Origin: Candidatus Hadarchaeota archaeon
GTDB lineage: Archaea; Hadarchaeota; Hadarchaeia; Hadarchaeales; JAWBSP01
Length of the DNA stretch: 64,000 bases
Direction of reading: 5' to 3'
NCBI GenBank assembly: GCA_964474885.1
Contig: CAYYWO010000003.1
Coordinates: 32,001-96,000 of the forward strand
In this document: positions 1 to 42,319 of the stretch, piece after piece
How the letters are laid out: every line of letters begins with the position of its first letter
Position numbering within the stretch: the stretch's first letter is position 1
Program-made: the position numbers and the translations under genes
The notes under the pieces: model-generated
Told to the model about the DNA's origin: nothing
Databases searched by the model: none
What the model saw: only the letters and a program-made list of their open reading frames with translations

Positions 1-409
1 CCTTTCTAAGTAGTGCCTTTCCCAGCTCCAGCTCCCCCGTGGAAAGTCTGACGGGGCCTTCCAGCATGCTCCTGAGGGCCTCCCTGTACTGCTCCCGGGT
101 GAGGAGCCCATCTACTACATGGATCTCGATGGGCTTCCACTCGGGTTTGGAGAGGAAGCTGAGGATCTGCTCGCATGCCCCGGGCGGGACAGCTATCACG
201 CTCTTGCCTAAAGCTAGGTGTGGTATGGTAGAAAGGAGACCTGGTACGTATGTTCTGTAAAGGCGATTCCCCCTGCGCTTGCTGGTGTAATACCCGAACA
301 GTTGCCTGTAAAACTTCACCTTCTTGGAGCCCTTTGCACCCAAGTCGAAGCTGATTATCTTGGCCCAGACCCCCTTCTTTCTAGTGGAACTACCTTCATC
401 CTTTAGCAT
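1..409 (-). CDS. Hypothetical protein, Cas2/VapD-like ferredoxin fold suspected (runs off the window edge)
   Basis: Manual translation from ATG 409: MLKDEGSSTRKKGVWAKIISFDLGAKGSKKVKFYRQLFGYYTSKRRGNRLYRTYVPGLLSTIPHLALGKSVIAVPP..., open to base 1; not in the ORF track. The IISFD strand, following helix and GKSVI motif resemble Cas2-type proteins. Confidence 0.6.
   Translation of the reverse strand, partial: MLKDEGSSTRKKGVWAKIISFDLGAKGSKKVKFYRQLFGYYTSKRRGNRLYRTYVPGLLSTIPHLALGKSVIAVPPGACEQILSFLSKPEWKPIEIHVVDGLLTREQYREALRSMLEGPVRLSTGELELGKALLRK
370..390 (-). promoter_or_regulatory. ORB-like element (Orc1/Cdc6 binding site)
   Basis: Minus strand GTTCCACTAGAAAGAAGGGGG fits the archaeal ORB pattern TTCCAnTnGAAA plus G-string. 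Confidence 0.6.
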
Positions 410-411
410 GC

Positions 412-435
412 TGTCTGTTACTATAGTAACAGACA
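412..435. repeat. 24-bp palindrome, copy 1
   Basis: TGTCTGTTACTATAGTAACAGACA, perfect dyad. Confidence 0.95.
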
Positions 436-464
436 CCTTAATAACTTGGTTGAGTTTTTCTTAG

Positions 465-485
465 CTTCCAGTTGAAACTAGGGGG
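465..485 (+). promoter_or_regulatory. ORB-like element
   Basis: CTTCCAGTTGAAACTAGGGGG; 16/21 identical to the inverted copy at 370-390; overlaps the tyrS stop codon. Confidence 0.6.
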
Positions 486-1518
486 TTCCTTTCACCCAAC
501 TGCTGACCTGCCCAAGCAATTCAGCTGCCCGCTTGTTTCTCTCGAAATGCGCTCTGACAGGCTCAATCAGTCTGTCTAAGTACTCGGCGCATGCGAGCTT
601 CAGATCGAGCGGGTGTATTTGTCCATCCCTGTAGGCCTGCTCGAGCTCTCCAAAGTGCGTGAAGGTCTCCCAGTTACCTCCCCTAAGTCTGACCCTGAAC
701 TCTTGGAACTCCTCGAACACTAGGTGCCTGATGTAGTCCATGATCGGATTGTTTGGGTCCCGCTGGGGGCAGTAGGCCCTCCTCAGCTTCCGCTCGATCT
801 CCTGCTTGGAGTCGTGCACGAAGATACAGGTCTCTGGCCTGCTCTTGCTCATCTTCTCCTCCGAGGTTCTCCCCATGAGCCCCATCAGCATGTGGTGGTG
901 GATGGCGACAGGTTTGGGTTTCCCTATTTTGGGCGCTACCTCCCTAGCCAGCATGTTCGCCCTCCGTTGATCCATGCCCAGCTGGCAGACCTGAACGCCC
1001 AGGTAAAAGATGTCCGCCACTTGCATACTGGGGTAGAAGATCCAAGCGGTAGGATTGTGCAGGCTCTCCCCCCTTCCCGCGATGGTGAGGGCCCTGAGGC
1101 TCCTGGAGAGAGTGTGGTGCTTGGCTATGTTGAGGACGAGCCTCCAATACTCGGGATCCCTGACCAAGTCGGAGGACCAGACTATTTCCACTCTGTCCAG
1201 AGGGACGCCTGCGGCCTTCCAGACCTCGATCAGGTATTTCCCTACGGTCCTTATCTTTTCTAGATCCCCCCCCACCTTGTCGTTTATCCAAGCGAACCAG
1301 TCCGCAAGCAGTAGTTTGAACCTGAAGCCGGCCTGCAGGAAGCGCCGGAGCGTCAGGGGCCTGTAAATGCCGAAGGGGAGGTGGGCTAGGCCTGAGGGCT
1401 CGAAGCCGTCGTAGGCAAGGGGGGACTCCTCGGTCTCCAGCAGGCTCCTGAGCTCCTCCTCCGTTACGATCTCCTCGGCCACACGTTTGACCAGCTGGAG
1501 CTTGGTTTCAACGTCCAC
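478..1518 (-). CDS. tyrS: Tyrosine--tRNA ligase (archaeal type)
   Basis: AYDGFEPSG, YPSMQVADI, GMDQR and KMSKS motifs. Confidence 0.95.
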   Translation of the reverse strand: MDVETKLQLVKRVAEEIVTEEELRSLLETEESPLAYDGFEPSGLAHLPFGIYRPLTLRRFLQAGFRFKLLLADWFAWINDKVGGDLEKIRTVGKYLIEVWKAAGVPLDRVEIVWSSDLVRDPEYWRLVLNIAKHHTLSRSLRALTIAGRGESLHNPTAWIFYPSMQVADIFYLGVQVCQLGMDQRRANMLAREVAPKIGKPKPVAIHHHMLMGLMGRTSEEKMSKSRPETCIFVHDSKQEIERKLRRAYCPQRDPNNPIMDYIRHLVFEEFQEFRVRLRGGNWETFTHFGELEQAYRDGQIHPLDLKLACAEYLDRLIEPVRAHFERNKRAAELLGQVSSWVKGTP

Positions 1519-1996
1519 CTTTCAGCCTCTCCGCCAGCTGGGCGACCTTCCTGCCCAGGCCCCGGCACTCCTTCTCCGCCTGCTCGTCCGGCGCCCCGTT
1601 AGCAGCCGCCCCGAAGTGCCCGCCGGTTGAGAGAGGATCCCCGCACACCACCATGCCGTGCACGAGCAGGGAGTGAAGGATAGAGAGCATGGTAGTCTCT
1701 CTTCCTCCTGCCCTGTGTCTGGAGGAGCAGAATGCTGCACCTACTTTCCCCTCCAGCTTCCCCCTCACCCTTATGGATTCGTCGAGGAACTTCTTCACCT
1801 CTGCCGCAGGTCCGGCGAAGTAAGCCGGGCTGCCTATGATGACCCCATCGGCTTCCAAGAGCTCCTCGACCCTCGCCTCCCTGACATCCTTCAGAACGAC
1901 TTCGGCCCCGGCCTCCCTAGCTCCCCTAGCTACCTCCTCAGCCATCCGCTTCGTGTTCCCGGTTCTCGAGTAGTAAAGGACGAGTATCCTAGCCAT
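1508..1996 (-). CDS. Flavodoxin/WrbA-like NAD(P)H oxidoreductase
   Basis: YYSRTGNT FMN loop, GSPAYF, GKVGAAF, GGRETT. Confidence 0.85.
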   Translation of the reverse strand: MARILVLYYSRTGNTKRMAEEVARGAREAGAEVVLKDVREARVEELLEADGVIIGSPAYFAGPAAEVKKFLDESIRVRGKLEGKVGAAFCSSRHRAGGRETTMLSILHSLLVHGMVVCGDPLSTGGHFGAAANGAPDEQAEKECRGLGRKVAQLAERLKGGR

Positions 1997-2032
1997 CTAT
2001 TCAGTTTTCCCAATTTCAAAAATCAGGCCGAG

Positions 2033-2056
2033 TGTCTGTTACCATGGTAACAGACA
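2033..2056. repeat. 24-bp palindrome, copy 2
   Basis: TGTCTGTTACCATGGTAACAGACA, perfect dyad between divergent genes. Confidence 0.95.
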
Positions 2057-2091
2057 AACCTCAACGGGTTAAAACGTGTTCGAAAGATTAG

Positions 2092-2580
2092 ATGGAGGCA
2101 AAGCCGATAATAGCCCTTACTCTGATCTGTGCCCTCTGGGGGATGGTTCTAGGTTTTGTGCACCAGCTGACCGAGGCGAAGATCAAGGAGGCCGAGCAGA
2201 AGGAGAAGGAGAAGCAGTTGCTTCAGATCTTCCCCGGCTGCACCTTCGAGGAGGAGAACGGCATATACTACTGCTATTCCGAGAACCAGCTGGTCGGGAA
2301 GGCCGTGGAGGTGCAGGTGAGGGGTTATGGGGGGCCCATGAAGGTATTAGTAGGCATCAGGATAGACAACACGATTCAGGGGGTTCGGGTGCTCTCTCAT
2401 AATGAGACGAGAGGAATAGGGACGAAAGCCACGGATCCTGAGTACCTCGCCCAGTACGAGGGGCTGGCATACGAGCAACTGGCGTTCAGACCGGAGGGGG
2501 AGGTGGAGGCGATAACAGGAGCTACGATAACCTCAACCGCCATCCTGCAGGCCGTGAGGGAGGCGATGCAGCATGCCTGA
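2092..2580 (+). CDS. rnfG: Rnf complex subunit G
   Basis: N-terminal TM helix, GYGGPM, HNETRGIG, ITGATITS covalent FMN motif. Confidence 0.9.
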   Translation: MEAKPIIALTLICALWGMVLGFVHQLTEAKIKEAEQKEKEKQLLQIFPGCTFEEENGIYYCYSENQLVGKAVEVQVRGYGGPMKVLVGIRIDNTIQGVRVLSHNETRGIGTKATDPEYLAQYEGLAYEQLAFRPEGEVEAITGATITSTAILQAVREAMQHA

Positions 2581-3166
2581 GCTGGGTTGGGAGCTGAAGA
2601 AGGGGCTGGCGAAGAAGAACCCGATCTTCATGCTAATGCTCGGGCTCTGCCCCTTCCTGGCGATTTCCACCTCCGTTGAGAACGCCCTGGGCATGTCTGC
2701 GGCCTTCTCCTTCGTCCTCTTGGGCTCATGCCTGCTCGTCTCCTGCATCAGGAGGTGGGTGCCGAGGAACGTGCGCATCCCGATCTTTGTCGTCATTATT
2801 TCGGGCTTCGTGACGGTCACGGAGCTCCTGGTGAGGGCTTACTCCCCCACCCTCAGGGAGCGCTTGGGCATCTTCCTCCCCCTGATCACGGTCAACTGTA
2901 TAGTGCTGGGGAGGATAGAGGCCTTCGCCTCCAGGCGGTCCCCCCTCGAGACGGTGGCGGATGCCCTAGGCATGGCGGGGGGCTTCTGCCTGGCCATAAC
3001 CTCGGTGGCTCTCATCCGGGAGCTGGTGGGGACGGGAGGGATCAGCTTCTTCGGGCATACTTGGACCCTGCTAGCCCAGTCCATCTACGGCTTCCAGCTC
3101 TCCCCGGGAGGGTTCATTGTTATGGGTGTGATACTGGCTGCACTCAAGAAGAAGGGGGTGATATGA
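2573..3166 (+). CDS. rnfE: Rnf complex subunit E
   Basis: NPIFMLMLGLCPFLA, LPLITVNCIVLGRIEAFA, IRELVGTG. Confidence 0.92.
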   Translation: MPELGWELKKGLAKKNPIFMLMLGLCPFLAISTSVENALGMSAAFSFVLLGSCLLVSCIRRWVPRNVRIPIFVVIISGFVTVTELLVRAYSPTLRERLGIFLPLITVNCIVLGRIEAFASRRSPLETVADALGMAGGFCLAITSVALIRELVGTGGISFFGHTWTLLAQSIYGFQLSPGGFIVMGVILAALKKKGVI

Positions 3167-3741
3167 TGGAGAACCTGCTGAGCATCTTCCTAACTTCCAT
3201 GCTGATAAACAACATCGTGCTCACGCGCTACATAGGCCTCTGCCCATTCTTCGGCATCTCCAGAAATCTCGCGAACTCGGGCATGATGGGCCTGGCTGTC
3301 ACCTTCGTCATGCTGGGCTCCTGCACGGTCACCTGGTTTGTGAATCAGTTCCTCCTCGCTCCTTTTGGTGTTCAGTACATGCGCATAGTGGCCTTTATTC
3401 TCGTCATAGCCTCCTTCGTGCAGCTGGTGGAGATAATCATGCGGAAAGCCCTCCCCAAGTTTTACTCTGCTTTTGGAATATACCTGCCCCTCATAACCAC
3501 CAACTGTGCTATTCTAGCGGTCAACCTGATAAACTTCGACGAGGCGTACTCCCTGCCTGCCTCCTTGGTGAATGCCCTCGGGACGGGTTTAGGGTTCATG
3601 CTCGCCATATGCCTGCTTGCAGGCCTGAGGGAGAGGCTGGAGTCCGAGGAGCTCCCGCGCTCCATGCGGGGGGCACCTATAGCCTTCATCTCGGCTGGCC
3701 TCCTCGCCCTCGCCTTCCAAGGATTCGTGGGAATAGGATGA
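3163..3741 (+). CDS. rnfA: Rnf complex subunit A
   Basis: NNIVLTRYIGLCPF, LPLITTNCAIL, LRERLE; ATG overlaps the rnfE stop. Confidence 0.92.
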   Translation: MMENLLSIFLTSMLINNIVLTRYIGLCPFFGISRNLANSGMMGLAVTFVMLGSCTVTWFVNQFLLAPFGVQYMRIVAFILVIASFVQLVEIIMRKALPKFYSAFGIYLPLITTNCAILAVNLINFDEAYSLPASLVNALGTGLGFMLAICLLAGLRERLESEELPRSMRGAPIAFISAGLLALAFQGFVGIG

Positions 3742-4511
3742 TAGGTGAACTCCTGACGCTGTCCTTGGTGGGGCTGGGGTTTGGGGCCCTCCTGAGCTGG
3801 GCTTCCTCTAGGTTCGCCGTTCAGGTGGACGAGCGCGTGGAGGAGGTGAAGAGCATGCTCCCGGGAGCCAACTGTGGGGCATGCGGGTTCAGGGGGTGTG
3901 AGGATTACGCCAAAGCACTAGTTGCAAACCCGAAGCTAATAGACAGGTGCAGAATTCTTACGCCATCGGAAAGGAAGCGCCTGGCCTCCTATCTAGGGAT
4001 AGAGACGGGGGAGGTGGAGTGGACAGTGGCGGTTCCTCTCTGCTCCGGGAAGAGCAAGAGGAGGTTCGAATACGTGGGGGAGCGCAGCTGCTTGTCCGCT
4101 TCCCTTTTGGAAGAAGGGCCCACCGCATGCAAGTATGCATGTCTTGGATTCGGGGACTGTGAGAGAGCATGCCCGTTCGAGGCCATAAAGATGGTGGACG
4201 GACTTCCACAAGTGGACTGGGAGAAGTGCAAGGGCTGCGGGCTCTGCGTCCAGGCCTGTCCCAGAGGAGTGATGAAGTTGCTACCTAGGAATGCCGCAGT
4301 GGTGGTGAGGTGCAACTCTCCGGAAATTGGGAAAGTGGTAGTGACAAGCTGTGACAATGGATGCATCAAGTGCAGGCTGTGCGAGAGGAACTGTCCAACT
4401 GGTGCGATAAAAGTTACCGACAAGGTCACGATCGACTACTCAATCTGCAACGCGTGCATGAAATGTGTTGAAGCCTGCCCCAGAAAGATCATCCAACCCC
4501 TCAAGGGCTGA
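3738..4511 (+). CDS. rnfB: Rnf complex subunit B (polyferredoxin)
   Basis: LPGANCGACGFRGC plus several CxxCxxCxxxCP motifs; ATG at 3738. Confidence 0.92.
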   Translation: MIGELLTLSLVGLGFGALLSWASSRFAVQVDERVEEVKSMLPGANCGACGFRGCEDYAKALVANPKLIDRCRILTPSERKRLASYLGIETGEVEWTVAVPLCSGKSKRRFEYVGERSCLSASLLEEGPTACKYACLGFGDCERACPFEAIKMVDGLPQVDWEKCKGCGLCVQACPRGVMKLLPRNAAVVVRCNSPEIGKVVVTSCDNGCIKCRLCERNCPTGAIKVTDKVTIDYSICNACMKCVEACPRKIIQPLKG

Positions 4512-4526
4512 TAGTTTCACCTGATG

Positions 4527-4550
4527 TGTCTGTTACTATGGTAACAGACA
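4527..4550. repeat. 24-bp palindrome, copy 3
   Basis: TGTCTGTTACTATGGTAACAGACA between convergent rnfB and pyrG. Confidence 0.95.
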
Positions 4551-4608
4551 ACGAGGTCGTGACATCTCCGAGTTTTTTAAATTTTCACTTTGGGACTTTA
4601 CAAACTGC

Positions 4609-4632
4609 TTTCTGTTACCATGGTAACAGACA
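4609..4632. repeat. 24-bp palindrome, copy 4
   Basis: TTTCTGTTACCATGGTAACAGACA; dyad extends to ACTGC/GCAGT (4604-4637). Confidence 0.93.
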
Positions 4633-4645
4633 GCAGTCAGAGATT

Positions 4646-6244
4646 TCAGCTCTTTTTGTGTTCTAGGCAGCTCTGGAGGAAAGCAACGAAAACTGGGGAA
4701 GGCTTTTCGAGTCTGGAGGTAAACTCGGGGTGGAACTGGGTACCCAGAAAGAAGGGATGATTGGGGAGCTCTAAAATCTCCATCCTCCTGCCATCGGGGG
4801 ATGTGCCCGAGAATTTCAGCCCGGCGGACTCGATCCTGGGGATGTAGGAGGGATTCACCTCATACCGGTGCCTGTGCCTTTCCCTTATGAGTTCCGAACC
4901 GTAGATGCGATGAGCTATAGTCCCTTTCTTGATCACGATCTCGTGGGCACCCAGCCTCATGGTCCCCCCCTTCTCCCTCACCTGTTTCTGCTCGGGTAGC
5001 AAGTCTATGACGGGATGGGGCGTGTTGGGGTCTATTTCGGTGCTGTTGGCATTCTTCAGCTTGAGGACGTTCCTAGCGAACTCCACGACGGCAAGCTGGA
5101 ATCCGAAGCACAGGCCTAGGAATGGCACCTTCCTCCTCCTGGCATACTTTATAGAGAGGATCTTCCCCTCGGTTCCCCTGCGACCGAAGCCTCCAGGGAC
5201 GAGAACGCCGTCGAAGGGATCGAGCAGGGAAAGCTCCCCAGCCTCCAGCCTCTCCGCCTCTATCCACCGAATGTCCACCCTCACCCCGAGGAAGGCGGCC
5301 GCGTGCTTGAGGGCCTCGTTGATGCTCAGGTAGGTGTCTGCGATCCTGACGTACTTCCCCACCATGGCTACCCTGATTTTCCTCCTCGCTTTTTTGACTT
5401 TCTCGACCAGCCTCCTCCACTCGGAGAGGTCGGAACTGCTGCCCCTGAGCCCCAGCCTCTCTAGGATTTTTTCGCCCAGCCCTTGGGCATCCAGCATGAG
5501 CGGGATCTCGTAAATGTTTTCAACGTCCACGTCCGAGAACACGGAGCCCTCGGGCACGTTGCAGAAGAGGGAGATCTTCCGCCTTGCCTCCTCCGTCAGA
5601 GGCTGTTTGCATCTGCATAGGATGAGATCGGGGGTGATGCCGGCTTCCCTGAGCTCCTTCACCGAGTGCTGGGTGGGCTTAGTCTTCTGCTCCCCAACTA
5701 CGTCCAGCGAGGGCACTAGGGTGACGTGGATGAAGATCACGTTGTTCGGTCCCTCCTCCAGTCTGAGCTGCCTGACGGCCTCTAGGAAGGGCATGGCCTC
5801 TATGTCCCCCACCGTCCCCCCGATCTCGACCAGGCAGACGTCTACGTCACAGGCCTTGGCGACACGTCTGATGCGGTTCTTGATGGCGTCCGTCACGTGG
5901 GGGATTATTTGTACAGTTTTTCCTAGATAGTCCCCCCTGCGCTCGGCTTGGATCACCTCCCAGTAGATCTGGCCGGTGGTTATGTTGTGCTCCTTCGTCA
6001 GGTTCTGGTTCAGGAAGCGCTCGTAGTGCCCCATGTCCTGATCTATCTCCCCCCCATCATCCGTCACGAAGATCTCCCCGTGCTCGAAGGGATTCATGGT
6101 TCCCGCATCCACGTTGAGATAGGGATCTATCTTAATGGCGGTAACTCGGAGACCCCTAGACTGCAGGATCTTCCCGATGGAGGCTGTGACTATCCCCTTT
6201 CCCAGCCCGCTTATAACACCGCCAGTTACTACCACGAATTTCAC
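4646..6244 (-). CDS. pyrG: CTP synthase
   Basis: [45 protein letters not shown]. Confidence 0.98.
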
Positions 6245-6436
6245 GGAAATCTAACCTAGGAGGTAACCTAATTAAAGGTTTCGTTACCCACGGTTATGGT
6301 CTTTCTAACAGTCCCTTTTCTTTTGTTCCCACCACGTCTTGTAGTTCATCTTTCTTTGAGTTCTCCCCATGCCTCCTTGTAGCTTCGGTACATCTTGAGG
6401 AAGATTCCCATAGGCTTAAAACCGCATACAGGCATT

Positions 6437-6460
6437 TGTCTGTTACCATGGTAACAGACA
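6437..6460. repeat. 24-bp palindrome, copy 5
   Basis: TGTCTGTTACCATGGTAACAGACA, perfect dyad inside the pyr cluster. Confidence 0.95.
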
Positions 6461-6466
6461 GCGGAT

Positions 6467-6617
6467 TTAGGCTTCGCCGAAGAATCTGCCCCGCTGAATG
6501 TTTTCTGCTATGGTCTTCAGGATGCACTGCTTGCGGCCCTTGTCGTACCACATGCAGTCCTCCCCCTTACATGGGCCCTTCGTGAGGGGGGCAGAAACCA
6601 GGCTGTTTATCCTTCAT
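6467..6617 (-). pseudogene. Small four-Cys protein with a frameshift in a homopolymer run
   Basis: Removing one base from the G6 run (6586-6591) gives MKDKQPGFCPLTKGPCKGEDCMWYDKGRKQCILKTIAENIQRGRFFGEA*; ATG overlaps the pyrD end. Confidence 0.55.
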
Positions 6618-7536
6618 GGGCCAGGCCTACAAGATCCTCCACCCGCCTGAAACTCTGCTCCTCGAGATATTTCCTCAGTCCCTCTTGGAGCTCCGGAAAG
6701 ATCCCGGGTCCCTTCAGGGCGACGGCGGAGCCCACCTGCACCGCCCTGGCGCCCGCCAGGAGGTATTCCACCGCATCCCTCCAGCAGGTGACCCCACCGC
6801 AGCCTATAAGGGGGATGGATAGCTCCTCGTACATTTCGTACACGCAGCGGAGGGAGACGGGCTTCAGGGCGGGCCCGGACATCCCCCCGAACTTGTTCGA
6901 GAGGATGGGCCTCCGGGAGCTGGGATCGATGAGCATGGAGCGGAGGGTGTTCAGCAGGACGAGGGCATCCGCCCCCTCCTCCTCCGCCCTCCTGCCGCAC
7001 TCGAGCAGGGAGTCGCAAAGCCCCAGCTTCACCCACATGGGCAGCTCCGTTTTTGACCTCACGCACCTCACGATCCTCGCCACTATTTCAGGGTCCGAGC
7101 CCAGCTCCAGCCCTCTCTTTTCAGCATGGGGGCAGGAGAGGTTGAGCTCGACCCCGGAGACCCTGAACCCGTTCACGAGCTCGGCCATTCGCGAGAACTC
7201 CTCCTCGCTCGAGCCGGCCAGGCTAACTATGACGGGCACGTTGGCTTTCAAAAGCTCGGGCAGCTCCTGCTTCAAGTACGTCTCGCAACCAGGGTTCGCC
7301 AGCCCCAGGGCGTTCAGGAGCCCCCCCTCGAAGCCCACGATAACGGGGGTCGGATATCCTTCCTTGGGTTCTAGGGTGAGGCTCTTTGTGACCACAGCAC
7401 CCGCGCCGCTCTCATAAGCCTTCCGGAGCAGGGAGCCGTAGGAAAGGATACCGGAGGCGAGTATGAAGGGATTCCTGAGCCTCAGCTTCCCCACGCGGAC
7501 CTCTAGACTCACAGGAACTTTAAGTTCTTTCCCCAT
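6607..7536 (-). CDS. pyrD: Dihydroorotate dehydrogenase, family 1 catalytic subunit
   Basis: NPFILASG, VTKS, ELNLSCPH, GGMSGPALKP. Confidence 0.95.
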   Translation of the reverse strand: MGKELKVPVSLEVRVGKLRLRNPFILASGILSYGSLLRKAYESGAGAVVTKSLTLEPKEGYPTPVIVGFEGGLLNALGLANPGCETYLKQELPELLKANVPVIVSLAGSSEEEFSRMAELVNGFRVSGVELNLSCPHAEKRGLELGSDPEIVARIVRCVRSKTELPMWVKLGLCDSLLECGRRAEEEGADALVLLNTLRSMLIDPSSRRPILSNKFGGMSGPALKPVSLRCVYEMYEELSIPLIGCGGVTCWRDAVEYLLAGARAVQVGSAVALKGPGIFPELQEGLRKYLEEQSFRRVEDLVGLAHEG

Positions 7537-15752: not shown

Positions 15753-16928
15753 TTGATGGGGATATTTCTGGACAGCGGGAAGCTCCTGCCGGATTACCTC
15801 CCTCCTAGGTTGCCGCACAGGGAGAAGGAGCTCAAGCGTCTGCACAGCCTCTTCTCGGACTTCTTCCGGGAGAAAATTTCCAAGCGCGTGCTGATAGTCG
15901 GCGGGATAGGAGTTGGAAAGACAGCCCTTAGCCAGAGCTTTGGGAGGGAAGCGGAGAAGAAACAGGAGGCTCATTATGTTCACGTTAACTGCAGGATCAC
16001 CTCCTCCCCCTACCTGATACTCCACCAAGTGATGAGGAAGTTCAGGCCAACCTACCCGGTGAGGGGGTTCTCCACGTGGGAGGTTCTGAACGATCTCGTC
16101 TCGCATTTGGAGAAGAGGGACGAGAGACTCATCGTGACCCTAGACGAGCTCGACTTTCTGGTCGAGACGAGGGGTCCGGACTTGCTCTACAATCTGACCA
16201 GGTACGTGGAGCAGAACCCCCAGGCTTGGAGGATCGCCCTGATCGGGGTGAGCAGGGACCCGCACTTCCTGAACAGACTCGATGCCCCCACCCGTAGCAC
16301 CTTCATGCACAATCTGCTCGAGCTCAGTAAATACACCCGAGAGCAACTCTTCGACATCCTGAAGTACCGGGCCGAGGAAGCGATTCTGCCTGGAAAGGTG
16401 GAGGAAGAGTGCCTTAGGCTGATAGCGGACATGGCTGCGCCCCTGGGGGACGCCAGGTACGCCCTGGAGATCCTTTACCGGGCAGGCTGCCTGGCGGAGA
16501 ACAGGAGGGATCCGGAGATAACGCCCGAGCACGTGAGGGAGGCCAAGGCGAGCATCTACCCCAGCTTTCCCAAGCACAGGCTGGAGGGGTTGCACCCTCA
16601 TGAGGTTCTGATCCTGCTAGCAGTCGCGAGGCGGCTCAGGTCCACCCGGGCAGCCTACACGACCTCGGGGGAGACATACGAGGCGTACCATATCGCCTGC
16701 GAGGAGTACGGCTTTAAACCGCTAGTTTACGCCCAGTTCCTAGTTCACTTGGACAGGCTGAGGGCCCTCGGGATGCTGAGCGCGAAACACTTCAGGGCGA
16801 GGGGCCAGACCACCCTCCTGAGCATAGAGGAGGCCCCCGTCGAGGGGCTAGTGAAAGAGCTGGAACAGCTGGTTGAGAGGAGGCTCAAAAGGGCCGATCA
16901 GTCTCGGTGTGGGTCATCCTATTTTTAG
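15753..16928 (+). CDS. cdc6: Orc1/Cdc6 replication initiator
   Basis: YLPPRLPHREKE, Walker A GVGKT, LDELD, GDARYAL, C-terminal winged helix. Confidence 0.92.
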   Translation: MMGIFLDSGKLLPDYLPPRLPHREKELKRLHSLFSDFFREKISKRVLIVGGIGVGKTALSQSFGREAEKKQEAHYVHVNCRITSSPYLILHQVMRKFRPTYPVRGFSTWEVLNDLVSHLEKRDERLIVTLDELDFLVETRGPDLLYNLTRYVEQNPQAWRIALIGVSRDPHFLNRLDAPTRSTFMHNLLELSKYTREQLFDILKYRAEEAILPGKVEEECLRLIADMAAPLGDARYALEILYRAGCLAENRRDPEITPEHVREAKASIYPSFPKHRLEGLHPHEVLILLAVARRLRSTRAAYTTSGETYEAYHIACEEYGFKPLVYAQFLVHLDRLRALGMLSAKHFRARGQTTLLSIEEAPVEGLVKELEQLVERRLKRADQSRCGSSYF

Positions 16929-33954: not shown

Positions 33955-34064
33955 CAACTGCTTATTTGTTGCAAACACTTCACGCCAAAGTGTTTATAAC
34001 CGGTAAACACTTTGGGGAACTTTTATTTGTTTATCAACTTCCTGCAAGCTGTTTATAAACACTT
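33955..34064. repeat. Array of ~4 AT-rich dyad repeats, ~30-bp period
   Basis: CAACTGCTTATTTGTTGCAAACACTT, AAAGTGTTTATAACCGGTAAACACTTT, AACTTTTATTTGTTTATCAACTT, AAGCTGTTTATAAACACTT. Confidence 0.8.
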
Positions 34065-42182: not shown

Positions 42183-42319
42183 AACAAATAAACAGTTTAT
42201 GCGAAGTGTATAACAAAATAAACAGTTGGCTCAAAGTGTTTATAACAATAAAACACTTGCGAGGCGTGTTTGCAACAAAATAAACAGTTGACATGAACTG
42301 TGATAATAGATAACAGTTG
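42183..42319. repeat. Array of 5 AT-rich dyad repeats, 29-31-bp period
   Basis: Units end AAACAGTT, AAACACTT or TAACAGTT at 42197, 42227, 42258, 42289, 42318; consensus ~AAGTGTTT..AACAAAATAAACAGTTG. Confidence 0.88.

Follow-up and report, generated by a model that had tools for sequence, protein, structure and literature searches.

The stretch analyzed here, referred to below as the window, is 64 kb of DNA (G000:C3:32001-96000) from G000, a draft Hadarchaeota genome assembled to 1.18 Mb in 60 contigs and 92% complete. It opens with the 5' part of a gene for an orphan basic protein, p165, followed by a pair of sequences resembling archaeal origin recognition boxes (ORBs) and by five copies of a 24-bp palindrome, the first of which lies between the two boxes. 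We traced the palindrome and the p165 gene through a sample of 65 genomes of the order Hadarchaeales, all of the compared genomes being draft metagenome bins, with genes called by a simple in-house open reading frame (ORF) scorer. In light of the results presented here, we propose that the boxes are most likely the core of the replication origin and that the palindromes may be recognition sites of an origin-linked protein, probably p165 itself. The features that carry the argument are the following.

1..409, minus strand: 5' part of the p165 gene (whole gene C3:31912-32409, 165 amino acids; orphan basic protein)
369..389, minus strand: ORB-like box, TTCCACTAGAAAGAAGGGGGT on the minus strand; overlaps p165 codons 7-13 of 165
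412..435, no strand: palindrome copy 1, with a TATA centre; between the ORB-like boxes and 2 bp upstream of the p165 ATG
466..486, plus strand: ORB-like box, TTCCAGTTGAAACTAGGGGGT; inverted relative to the first box; overlaps the stop codon of a Trp/Tyr (W/Y) tRNA synthetase gene
2033..2056, no strand: palindrome copy 2, in the middle of a 95-bp divergent gap between a flavodoxin-like gene and rnfG
4527..4550, no strand: palindrome copy 3, 15 bp past the rnfB stop codon in the convergent rnfB/pyrG gap
4609..4632, no strand: palindrome copy 4, with one mismatch, 13 bp past the pyrG stop codon in the same gap as copy 3
6437..6460, no strand: palindrome copy 5, between the pyrD 3' end and the pyrG 5' end

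Results

A predicted replication origin encloses a palindrome

A pattern search recovered exactly the five palindromes that the initial annotation had reported, at 412, 2033, 4527, 4609 (one mismatch) and 6437, and bore out its statement that the rest of the window holds no full copy, with none found at up to three mismatches; 100 dinucleotide-preserving shuffles of the window gave 0 matches. Sequence and ORF annotation agree that all five are intergenic and that copies 3 and 4 share the gap into which rnfB and pyrG converge. Copy 1 is indeed placed between an inverted pair of ORB-like boxes, 22 bp from the inverted box at 369-389 and 30 bp from the direct box at 466-486.

Both boxes carry the mini-ORB core TTCC...GAA, as do the ORBs of Pyrococcus; PMC1904270 describes the two motifs, TTCC and GAA, as perfectly conserved there and reports demonstrated binding of Cdc6/Orc1. 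The core pattern has four matches in the whole of G000, and a G-string is found in the two flanking boxes only. The box-palindrome-box layout is present in G000, G001 and G002, three genomes of one genus whose coding DNA shares ~70% nucleotide identity, and our inspection of ORBs, which covered 12 loci in 12 genomes and three families of the order, extended it further: at all nine loci of families f3 and f5 a variant of the palindrome stands beside ORB-like boxes and a strongly A/T-rich stretch, with both boxes recovered in 6/9 and one box in 3/9. As an independent check on the origin we used G011, a near-complete relative that has one contig of 1.03 Mb. Full ORB matches number just two in it, at 790,996 and 791,087, with a palindrome between them at 791,044. 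When GC skew is accumulated along the 1.03 Mb, the global minimum comes in the 10-kb bin that ends at 790,000, next to these two boxes. In G000 itself, with its 60 contigs, local GC skew follows gene strand and is uninformative on the origin. Because the ORB layout is conserved and the skew minimum of G011 coincides with it, window positions 369-486 are most likely the core of oriC, in keeping with the candidate origin first proposed from the sequence of the window. Two further genes define the surroundings of this site.

478..1518, minus strand: class I Trp/Tyr tRNA synthetase gene (Pfam tRNA-synt_1b, 1.3e-41), the conserved neighbour on the far side of the origin
15753..16928, plus strand: Orc1/Cdc6 gene (Cdc6_C match), ~15 kb from the ORB pair

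The gene order p165-origin-W/Y synthetase is kept at 11 of the 12 inspected loci. G011 encodes two Orc1/Cdc6 proteins, from genes 12 and 40 kb from its ORB pair, and it is the 40-kb one that is orthologous to the gene in the window. An origin directly upstream of the window orc1 gene was ruled out, there being no intergenic room for it; separation of oriC from cdc6 is reported for two Thermococcus species in the part of PMC4640148 at hand. Inverted boxes, the mini-ORB core, the G-string and an enclosed A/T-rich stretch all match archaeal origins as portrayed in the accessible sections of PMC1904270 and PMC4010727. The Hadarchaeal site differs from these in that the gene adjoining it is not orc1/cdc6 and in that a conserved non-ORB palindrome lies between the ORBs, an element unmentioned in the available text of PMC1904270, PMC4640148 and PMC4010727. 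A dif/Xer identity of the palindrome was rejected because Thermococcales dif sites are single-copy and have an 11-6-11 geometry, as stated in the excerpted PMC4640148.

Palindromes cluster around the origin in three related genomes

The window begins inside a cluster, with five further copies upstream on the same contig (C3:20629-28205). Genome-wide, G000 holds 27 copies at up to three mismatches (15 exact), spread over 11 contigs, and since the count at up to five mismatches is the same, none being added at four or five, the family has a sharp edge. Ten of the 27 fall within C3:20629-38460, a span of 17.8 kb or 1.5% of the assembly (P ~4e-12), and the cluster persists when only intergenic length and intergenic copies (25 of the 27) are considered (9/25, P 2e-10). 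Smaller groups occur on C9 (4), C5 (3) and C12 (2).

The full 24-mer is found in G000 only, plus one 2-mismatch match in G002, among 41 genomes searched, and its flanks are particular to each species: TGTCT/AGACA for G000, GT/AC for most copies of G001 and GGC/GCC for G002. Its 14-bp core, GTTACYATRGTAAC, is in turn confined to the genus, with 25, 30 and 13 copies in the three genomes and 0 in the other 62 of the order, the reversed control giving 0-1 matches. Clustering is shared by the sister genomes, with 13/30 exact core copies of G001 on one 32-kb contig and 6/13 core copies of G002 inside 10 kb, both syntenic with the G000 cluster. In the genus as a whole, ~40% of the 13-30 exact core copies lie ~10-20 kb or less from the origin.

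Individual positions are also conserved. Copy 1 and a copy inside an ApbE gene (C3:26296) are orthologous in G000, G001 and G002, and for each of three other places (the flavodoxin/rnfG gap, the 3' side of rnfB and the region before pyrG) one sister genome or both have a counterpart: the gaps matching that of copy 2 hold four copies in G001 and three in G002, and a G002 copy lies ~50 bp upstream of its pyrG. Among the copy 1 orthologues, G000-type flanks occur in G000 alone. The in-gene copy is translated as SVTMVT in each of the three genomes, and its G000 version is the full species-specific 24-mer despite residue changes. The gene that holds it, G000:C3:25806-27863 (L005:11806-13863), is kept in G001 and G002 and fuses an ApbE flavin-transferase domain to a ~395-residue polytopic membrane domain. 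The sister genomes also show gain and loss of sites, and in G001 three copies stand between two genes that abut in G000. On contig C18 of G001 a 762-bp gap contains an array of seven cores at 52-64 bp spacing (G001:C18:11710-12066; L030:3211-3567), with an eighth copy across the adjacent 679-codon gene. CRISPR arrays have a fully conserved repeat of at least 23 nt; the units of this array share ~18 nt each and most copies elsewhere are single, and a CRISPR identity was rejected.

Outside the genus the half-sites persist: the pair TGTTAC-N4-GTAACA is present in 16 of the 65 order genomes, with centres that vary by lineage and counts of 12, 7 and 8 in genus g13 and 15 in G009, while genus g8 retains an asymmetric one-letter variant. 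Copy number thus spans 2 to ~30 across lineages. Several copies in these bins lie 17-350 bp from contig ends (G043:C9, C24 and C66; G009:C40 and C43; G059:C48; G024:C49), which suggests that the palindrome repeat breaks short-read assemblies there.

The p165 gene travels with the palindrome

Homologues of p165 are present in 36/65 order genomes, 29 of them with strong matches, and a search of 1.84 billion protein cluster representatives returned 21 at E <=0.001. We find no Pfam match for 12 family members at E <=10 and no NCBIfam match, and all 12 of 12 homologues examined are basic (pI 8.9-10.7). The AlphaFold model, which is confident (predicted local distance difference test score 89.7), gives residues 12-105 a ferredoxin-like fold into which a lysine/arginine-rich beta-hairpin is inserted; helices and a short beta-hairpin make up the small C-terminal part. 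Fold searches (Foldseek against the PDB, VIA-align against 48,161 PDB representatives, and the BFVD viral models) returned generic ferredoxin-like matches only, and a PDB profile search and the ESM Atlas (best score 0.82) yielded nothing usable. Kinship with Cas2/VapD was rejected, hhalign against 11 Hadarchaeal Cas2 sequences giving a probability of 0.6% and the Foldseek Cas2 rows E >=0.13. In a homodimer prediction a control came close to the score of p165, and the prediction carries no weight here. A 288-codon ORF, G000:C3:31062-31928 (L005:17062-17928), converges on the p165 gene with a 17-bp 3' overlap and is kept in G001 and G002; its cysteine-rich N-terminus contains CxxxCxxC, a motif typical of radical-SAM enzymes.

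The co-occurrence of motif and gene family, which the initial annotation had put forward as a check, is borne out: p165 is found in 14 of the 16 genomes that carry the palindrome in exact form, these being related genomes whose counts are not independent, and 13 of the matches are strong. In the fourteenth, G043, a contig end truncates the p165 gene, and the remaining fragment is followed by a palindrome 9 bp after the stop codon. Conversely, the 22 genomes of family f2 and genera g3, g10 and g16 have no palindrome (0/22), and p165 is unmatched in 20 of them, the two others being g10 genomes with weak matches (E ~6e-4). The two elements are also physically linked. G011 has exactly two copies of the palindrome, one between its ORBs and one just past the p165 stop codon; the gene is likewise bracketed in G047, G024 and G058, and G015 has four copies around it. 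In G000 only the upstream side of p165 has a palindrome. The distance from palindrome to p165 start ranges from 2 to ~55 bp across lineages, and the site is always between the ORBs. Together, these data solidly support a palindrome that is order-wide and lineage-tuned, with founding copies at oriC and at the p165 gene and with amplification in some lineages, which in G000 is mainly around the origin.

A second candidate binder, a 143-residue protein with a helix-turn-helix (HTH)-like stretch in an operon with ParA, was rejected because the small protein occurs in 60/65 genomes and so does not follow the palindrome. This unit (G000:C9:36329-37479; L006:18329-19479) lies downstream of topoisomerase VI genes with a palindrome, C9:36274, beside it; the 143-residue protein has no Pfam match, its gene overlaps that of a ParA/MinD-type ATPase, and the palindrome is 31 bp past the ATPase stop codon.

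Sites largely disregard gene arrangement and are probably read as duplex DNA

The genomic setting of the palindrome was analyzed for 28 G000 core sites with up to one core mismatch. Fourteen lie in tandem gaps, 7 in convergent and 5 in divergent ones, against a background of 260 tandem, 70 convergent and 117 divergent gaps of >=24 bp, and 2 are in called ORFs, one of which is weak and probably spurious and the other the real ApbE gene. One copy, C5:43459, is squeezed between two stop codons, and others occupy the centre of short divergent gaps. The neighbours are functionally mixed, among them proteasome, translation factor, glycolysis, Rnf and histidine synthesis genes, which extends to the genome the initial view that the flanking genes are unrelated. 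Gap types near background and a copy within a gene argue against an ordinary operator or terminator: the pattern fits a promoter operator or a terminator poorly, ordinary promoter control is unlikely, and the distribution fits a DNA-level element working anywhere, or one inserting where tolerated.

As to the form in which the palindrome is read, all 12 of 12 variant copies in G000 are changed on one arm only and none is compensated. The arms are 20-40% G+C, and the predicted single-strand hairpin has a free energy of -8.2 to -8.5 kcal/mol at 37 C, which is better than shuffled sequence (z -4.6 to -5.3). A search of public runs located DNA of the source organism in hydrothermal-vent metagenomes. 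Taken together, the one-sided variants, the conserved asymmetric g8 form, the A/T-rich arms, the weak hairpin and the vent habitat favour recognition as duplex DNA.

A second repeat family and variation at palindrome sites

No larger repeats surround the G000 copies apart from one second repeat family, a 31-bp tandem unit with the consensus GAAGTGTTTATAACAGATAAACAGTTCCCGC. It is an imperfect palindrome in runs of 1-4 units, with 29 matches in G000 at <=1 mismatch and 37 at <=2, in 21 clusters; the other 64 order genomes together gave one 1-mismatch match.

33960-34008 and 42238-42254 of the window, L045:1492-1611 and 6608-6733, and L043:4531-4609: second repeat, several clusters of which abut the 24-bp palindrome

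Palindrome and second repeat share 5 gaps where ~1 would be expected (P 0.004). In other genomes, too, the unit repeated within a genome is longer than the part shared between genomes: T-runs flank the core in G009, G024 has an oriented extra GTAA, and a ~25-bp C-rich flank is alike in at least five of the eight G009 copies displayed (L143, L149, L151, L153, L155), from which a larger repeat has evidently spread in G009. Variation at single sites was followed in four other metagenome runs, whose contigs bridge five sites, four of them letter-identical and one with one other letter. No empty-site (palindrome-free) allele appears in these bridging contigs, which is weak evidence because they are short and cover some sites only. 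In two metagenome runs the C3:20629 copy has its centre reversed, CATA reading as TATG, with unchanged arms (G000:C3:20639, 20642; L129:639, 642); the reversed places lie near contig ends, and an assembly effect is possible. On contig C2 a divergent palindrome copy with two mismatches, C2:120796, lies ~650 bp from a 477-residue ORF (G000:C2:121455-122888; L039:3656-5089) with a Cas12f1-like TNB domain (TnpB-like).

Discussion

The crowding of palindromes around the predicted origin and the placement of one of them between the ORBs suggest that the palindrome is probably a docking site for an undescribed origin-linked protein. The reading we favour, with confidence that is evenly balanced, is that it is the duplex recognition site of a dimeric, Hadarchaeales-specific protein, probably p165, with a role in the origin region. 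We prefer it because positions are conserved, the in-gene copy is maintained with homogenized flanks, placement between the ORBs is constant and clustering is conserved. A dimer of p165 would recognize the palindrome as double-stranded DNA; the founding sites would be the one enclosed by the inverted ORB boxes and, in several lineages, another immediately after the end of the p165 gene; amplification in the genus would then have spread sites round the origin, and the bound array may mark or organize the origin region for segregation, or else titrate or gate an initiation factor. A bolder version, which on present sequence comparisons we regard as unlikely, would make this an origin-coupled system hitherto undescribed, in which an oriC-encoded orphan of ferredoxin fold binds the inter-ORB palindrome and, in some lineages, an amplified belt of such sites around the origin. 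It would serve as an archaeal centromere, or would gate or titrate an initiator, without kinship to ParB, SegB or any origin factor known so far.

Several observations weigh against the favoured reading. The remaining 17 of the 27 G000 copies are on ten other contigs and unplaceable relative to oriC, and an attempt to place them by ordering the contigs on G011 met a gene order too scrambled for the purpose, so that the motif scan of genome and relatives establishes an origin-centred distribution for the cluster only. Clustering near the origin is moreover inseparable from clustering near the p165 gene, and most G009 copies are not near p165. The identification of the ORF at 1-409 as the binder, suggested at the outset, has synteny, co-occurrence and bracketing on its side but no recognizable DNA-binding fold: p165 matches no DNA-binding family in Pfam or NCBIfam, and its best fold match (Z 7.8) is in the tool's stated noise range. 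Finally, the sharp similarity cut-off, the lineage-specific flanks and the copy numbers of 2-30 equally fit a spreading repeat, and 6/27 G000 copies lie <=100 bp from the second repeat family.

These last points lead to the strongest alternative, which we consider somewhat unlikely: a non-autonomous repeat copied by, or co-evolving with, a domesticated p165, in the manner of repetitive extragenic palindromes and their associated tyrosine transposases (REP/RAYT; REPIN), where clustering would be short-range spread out of the p165 locus without a role in replication or segregation. Like REPs, which are extragenic palindromes of 20-40 bp, species-specific and found in clusters and mosaics, the 24-bp units (13-30 copies in the genus) are nearly identical within a genome, with 15 of 27 exact and none beyond three mismatches. 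Like a RAYT, p165 is a single-copy, vertically inherited gene flanked by repeats, bracketed in G011, G047, G015, G024 and G058 and with a palindrome on the stop-codon side in G043. The core of p165 is ferredoxin-like, and this is the general fold class of HUH enzymes. Pairs and arrays, including the seven copies in G001:C18, the mosaics with the second repeat in G000 and with a longer shared flank in G009, and the sites gained or lost between sister genomes point the same way, and this explanation accounts equally well for the swings in copy number, the bracketing and the mosaics. Against it, p165 is no recognizable HUH-Y1 transposase, with no Pfam match to the Y1 transposase family and no His-hydrophobic-His among its invariant columns, and the available part of PMC6006769 reports for Archaea only ordinary IS200-type TnpA and no REP-type TnpA classes, so that p165 would have to be a non-homologous analogue. 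Copies number tens rather than hundreds; the half-sites are conserved across the whole order; several positions, one of them inside a gene, are kept between genomes of ~70% identity; and the founding copy is part of the origin. The two arms mirror each other perfectly, with none of the end tags that PMC3733652 gives for REPs, the A/T-rich stems would form only the weak hairpin described above in a vent organism, and the five bridged sites have no empty-site form. The initial annotation had named uniform, REP-like scatter as the outcome that would speak against an origin role; clustering is what we observe for ten of the 27 copies, while copy number and lineage-specific flanks do retain a REP-like character.

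That the palindromes are operators of a global transcription factor, with p165 repressing itself or another regulator acting on the neighbours as its regulon, appears improbable. The G000 copy between a TATA-like box and the p165 start codon is in the classic position of a repressor site, an A/T-rich box separates seven copies, in six gaps, from a start codon 32-44 bp away, the sites upstream of flavodoxin, rnfG and pyrG recur in sister genomes, and some neighbours are related to nucleotides (pyrG, the pyr operon, purE, guaA and the CCA-adding enzyme). Yet a quarter of the core sites in G000 (7/28) are in convergent gaps, C5:43459 stands between two stop codons and one site is inside conserved coding sequence; the neighbours as a set are heterogeneous, the sites show nearly no degeneracy, and it is the placement between the ORBs that is constant while the distance to the p165 start varies.

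Least probable is a hairpin acting in RNA or single strands as a transcript 3'-end stabilizer or terminator, for although 11/28 core sites follow a stop codon by <=51 bp, convergent gaps are somewhat over-represented (7/26 intergenic core sites vs. 70/447 gaps), T-runs lie between copies 3 and 4 and the fold is better than shuffled, copies also occupy the origin and the midpoints of short divergent gaps, places unlikely to be transcribed, variants go uncompensated, what is conserved across the order is sequence and not pairing (the g8 form being asymmetric), A/T-rich stems are weak for a thermophile, and an Rfam scan over 84 kb found two tRNAs only and nothing at the palindromes.

If the palindromes are indeed protein-binding sites at the origin, as the favoured reading has it, the obvious comparison is with chromosome segregation systems. 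Bacterial parS sites are origin-clustered palindromes, and the parallel drawn from the window alone holds as far as the sites are concerned: in G000, G001 and G002 they are short, near-identical, present in several copies and concentrated round the origin, and the ORB pair has a ParA/MinD-type ATPase gene in its vicinity, at 16 kb in G000 and at 2 kb in G011. It does not extend to the protein, as a six-frame search of the 92%-complete G000 with ParB_N (PF02195) gave 0 matches at E <=0.1, where a control matched 11/14 reference genomes, and the candidate binder p165 is ferredoxin-like whereas ParB is a helix-turn-helix protein. A palindrome within the origin itself, between the ORB boxes, is a further difference from parS. 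The SegAB system of Sulfolobales is similar in being archaeal and in having a lineage-specific binder (here a candidate), a motif upstream of its own gene and tens of sites; the part of 10.1101/2025.02.07.637068 available describes a palindrome directly upstream of the SegB operon and 46 and 32 chromosomal sites in two species. SegB sites are, according to the same excerpt, ~83% intragenic and scattered, in contrast to the 25/27 intergenic, clustered palindromes, and p165 is not related to SegB, a ribbon-helix-helix protein with segA as its companion gene, but is encoded on its own at oriC. The 13-bp SegB motif has 0 matches in G000 at <=1 mismatch. The similarity to the X-box of RFX factors that had been pointed out applies to the copies with a CATG centre only, and the RFX domain (PF02257) gave sub-threshold hits alone in G000, of 24.1 and 14.3 bits against a cut-off of 27, both on Orc1/Cdc6 winged helices. 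By analogy, then, the palindrome would work most like origin-proximal parS or SegB sites while belonging to neither family.

The site described here is the first concrete oriC prediction for Hadarchaeota, an uncultured phylum for which a full-text literature search combining its name with 'origin of replication' gave unrelated work only. It is an origin with an extra conserved element between its ORB boxes and with an orphan family, instead of orc1/cdc6, as its neighbour. Should the palindromes and p165 prove to be REP-like instead, they would represent an archaeal REP/RAYT analogue built on a non-homologous protein, which would be novel in Archaea. If p165 does bind the palindrome, archaeal origins can recruit lineage-specific factors for segregation or for initiation control, two processes that are both poorly understood in Archaea.

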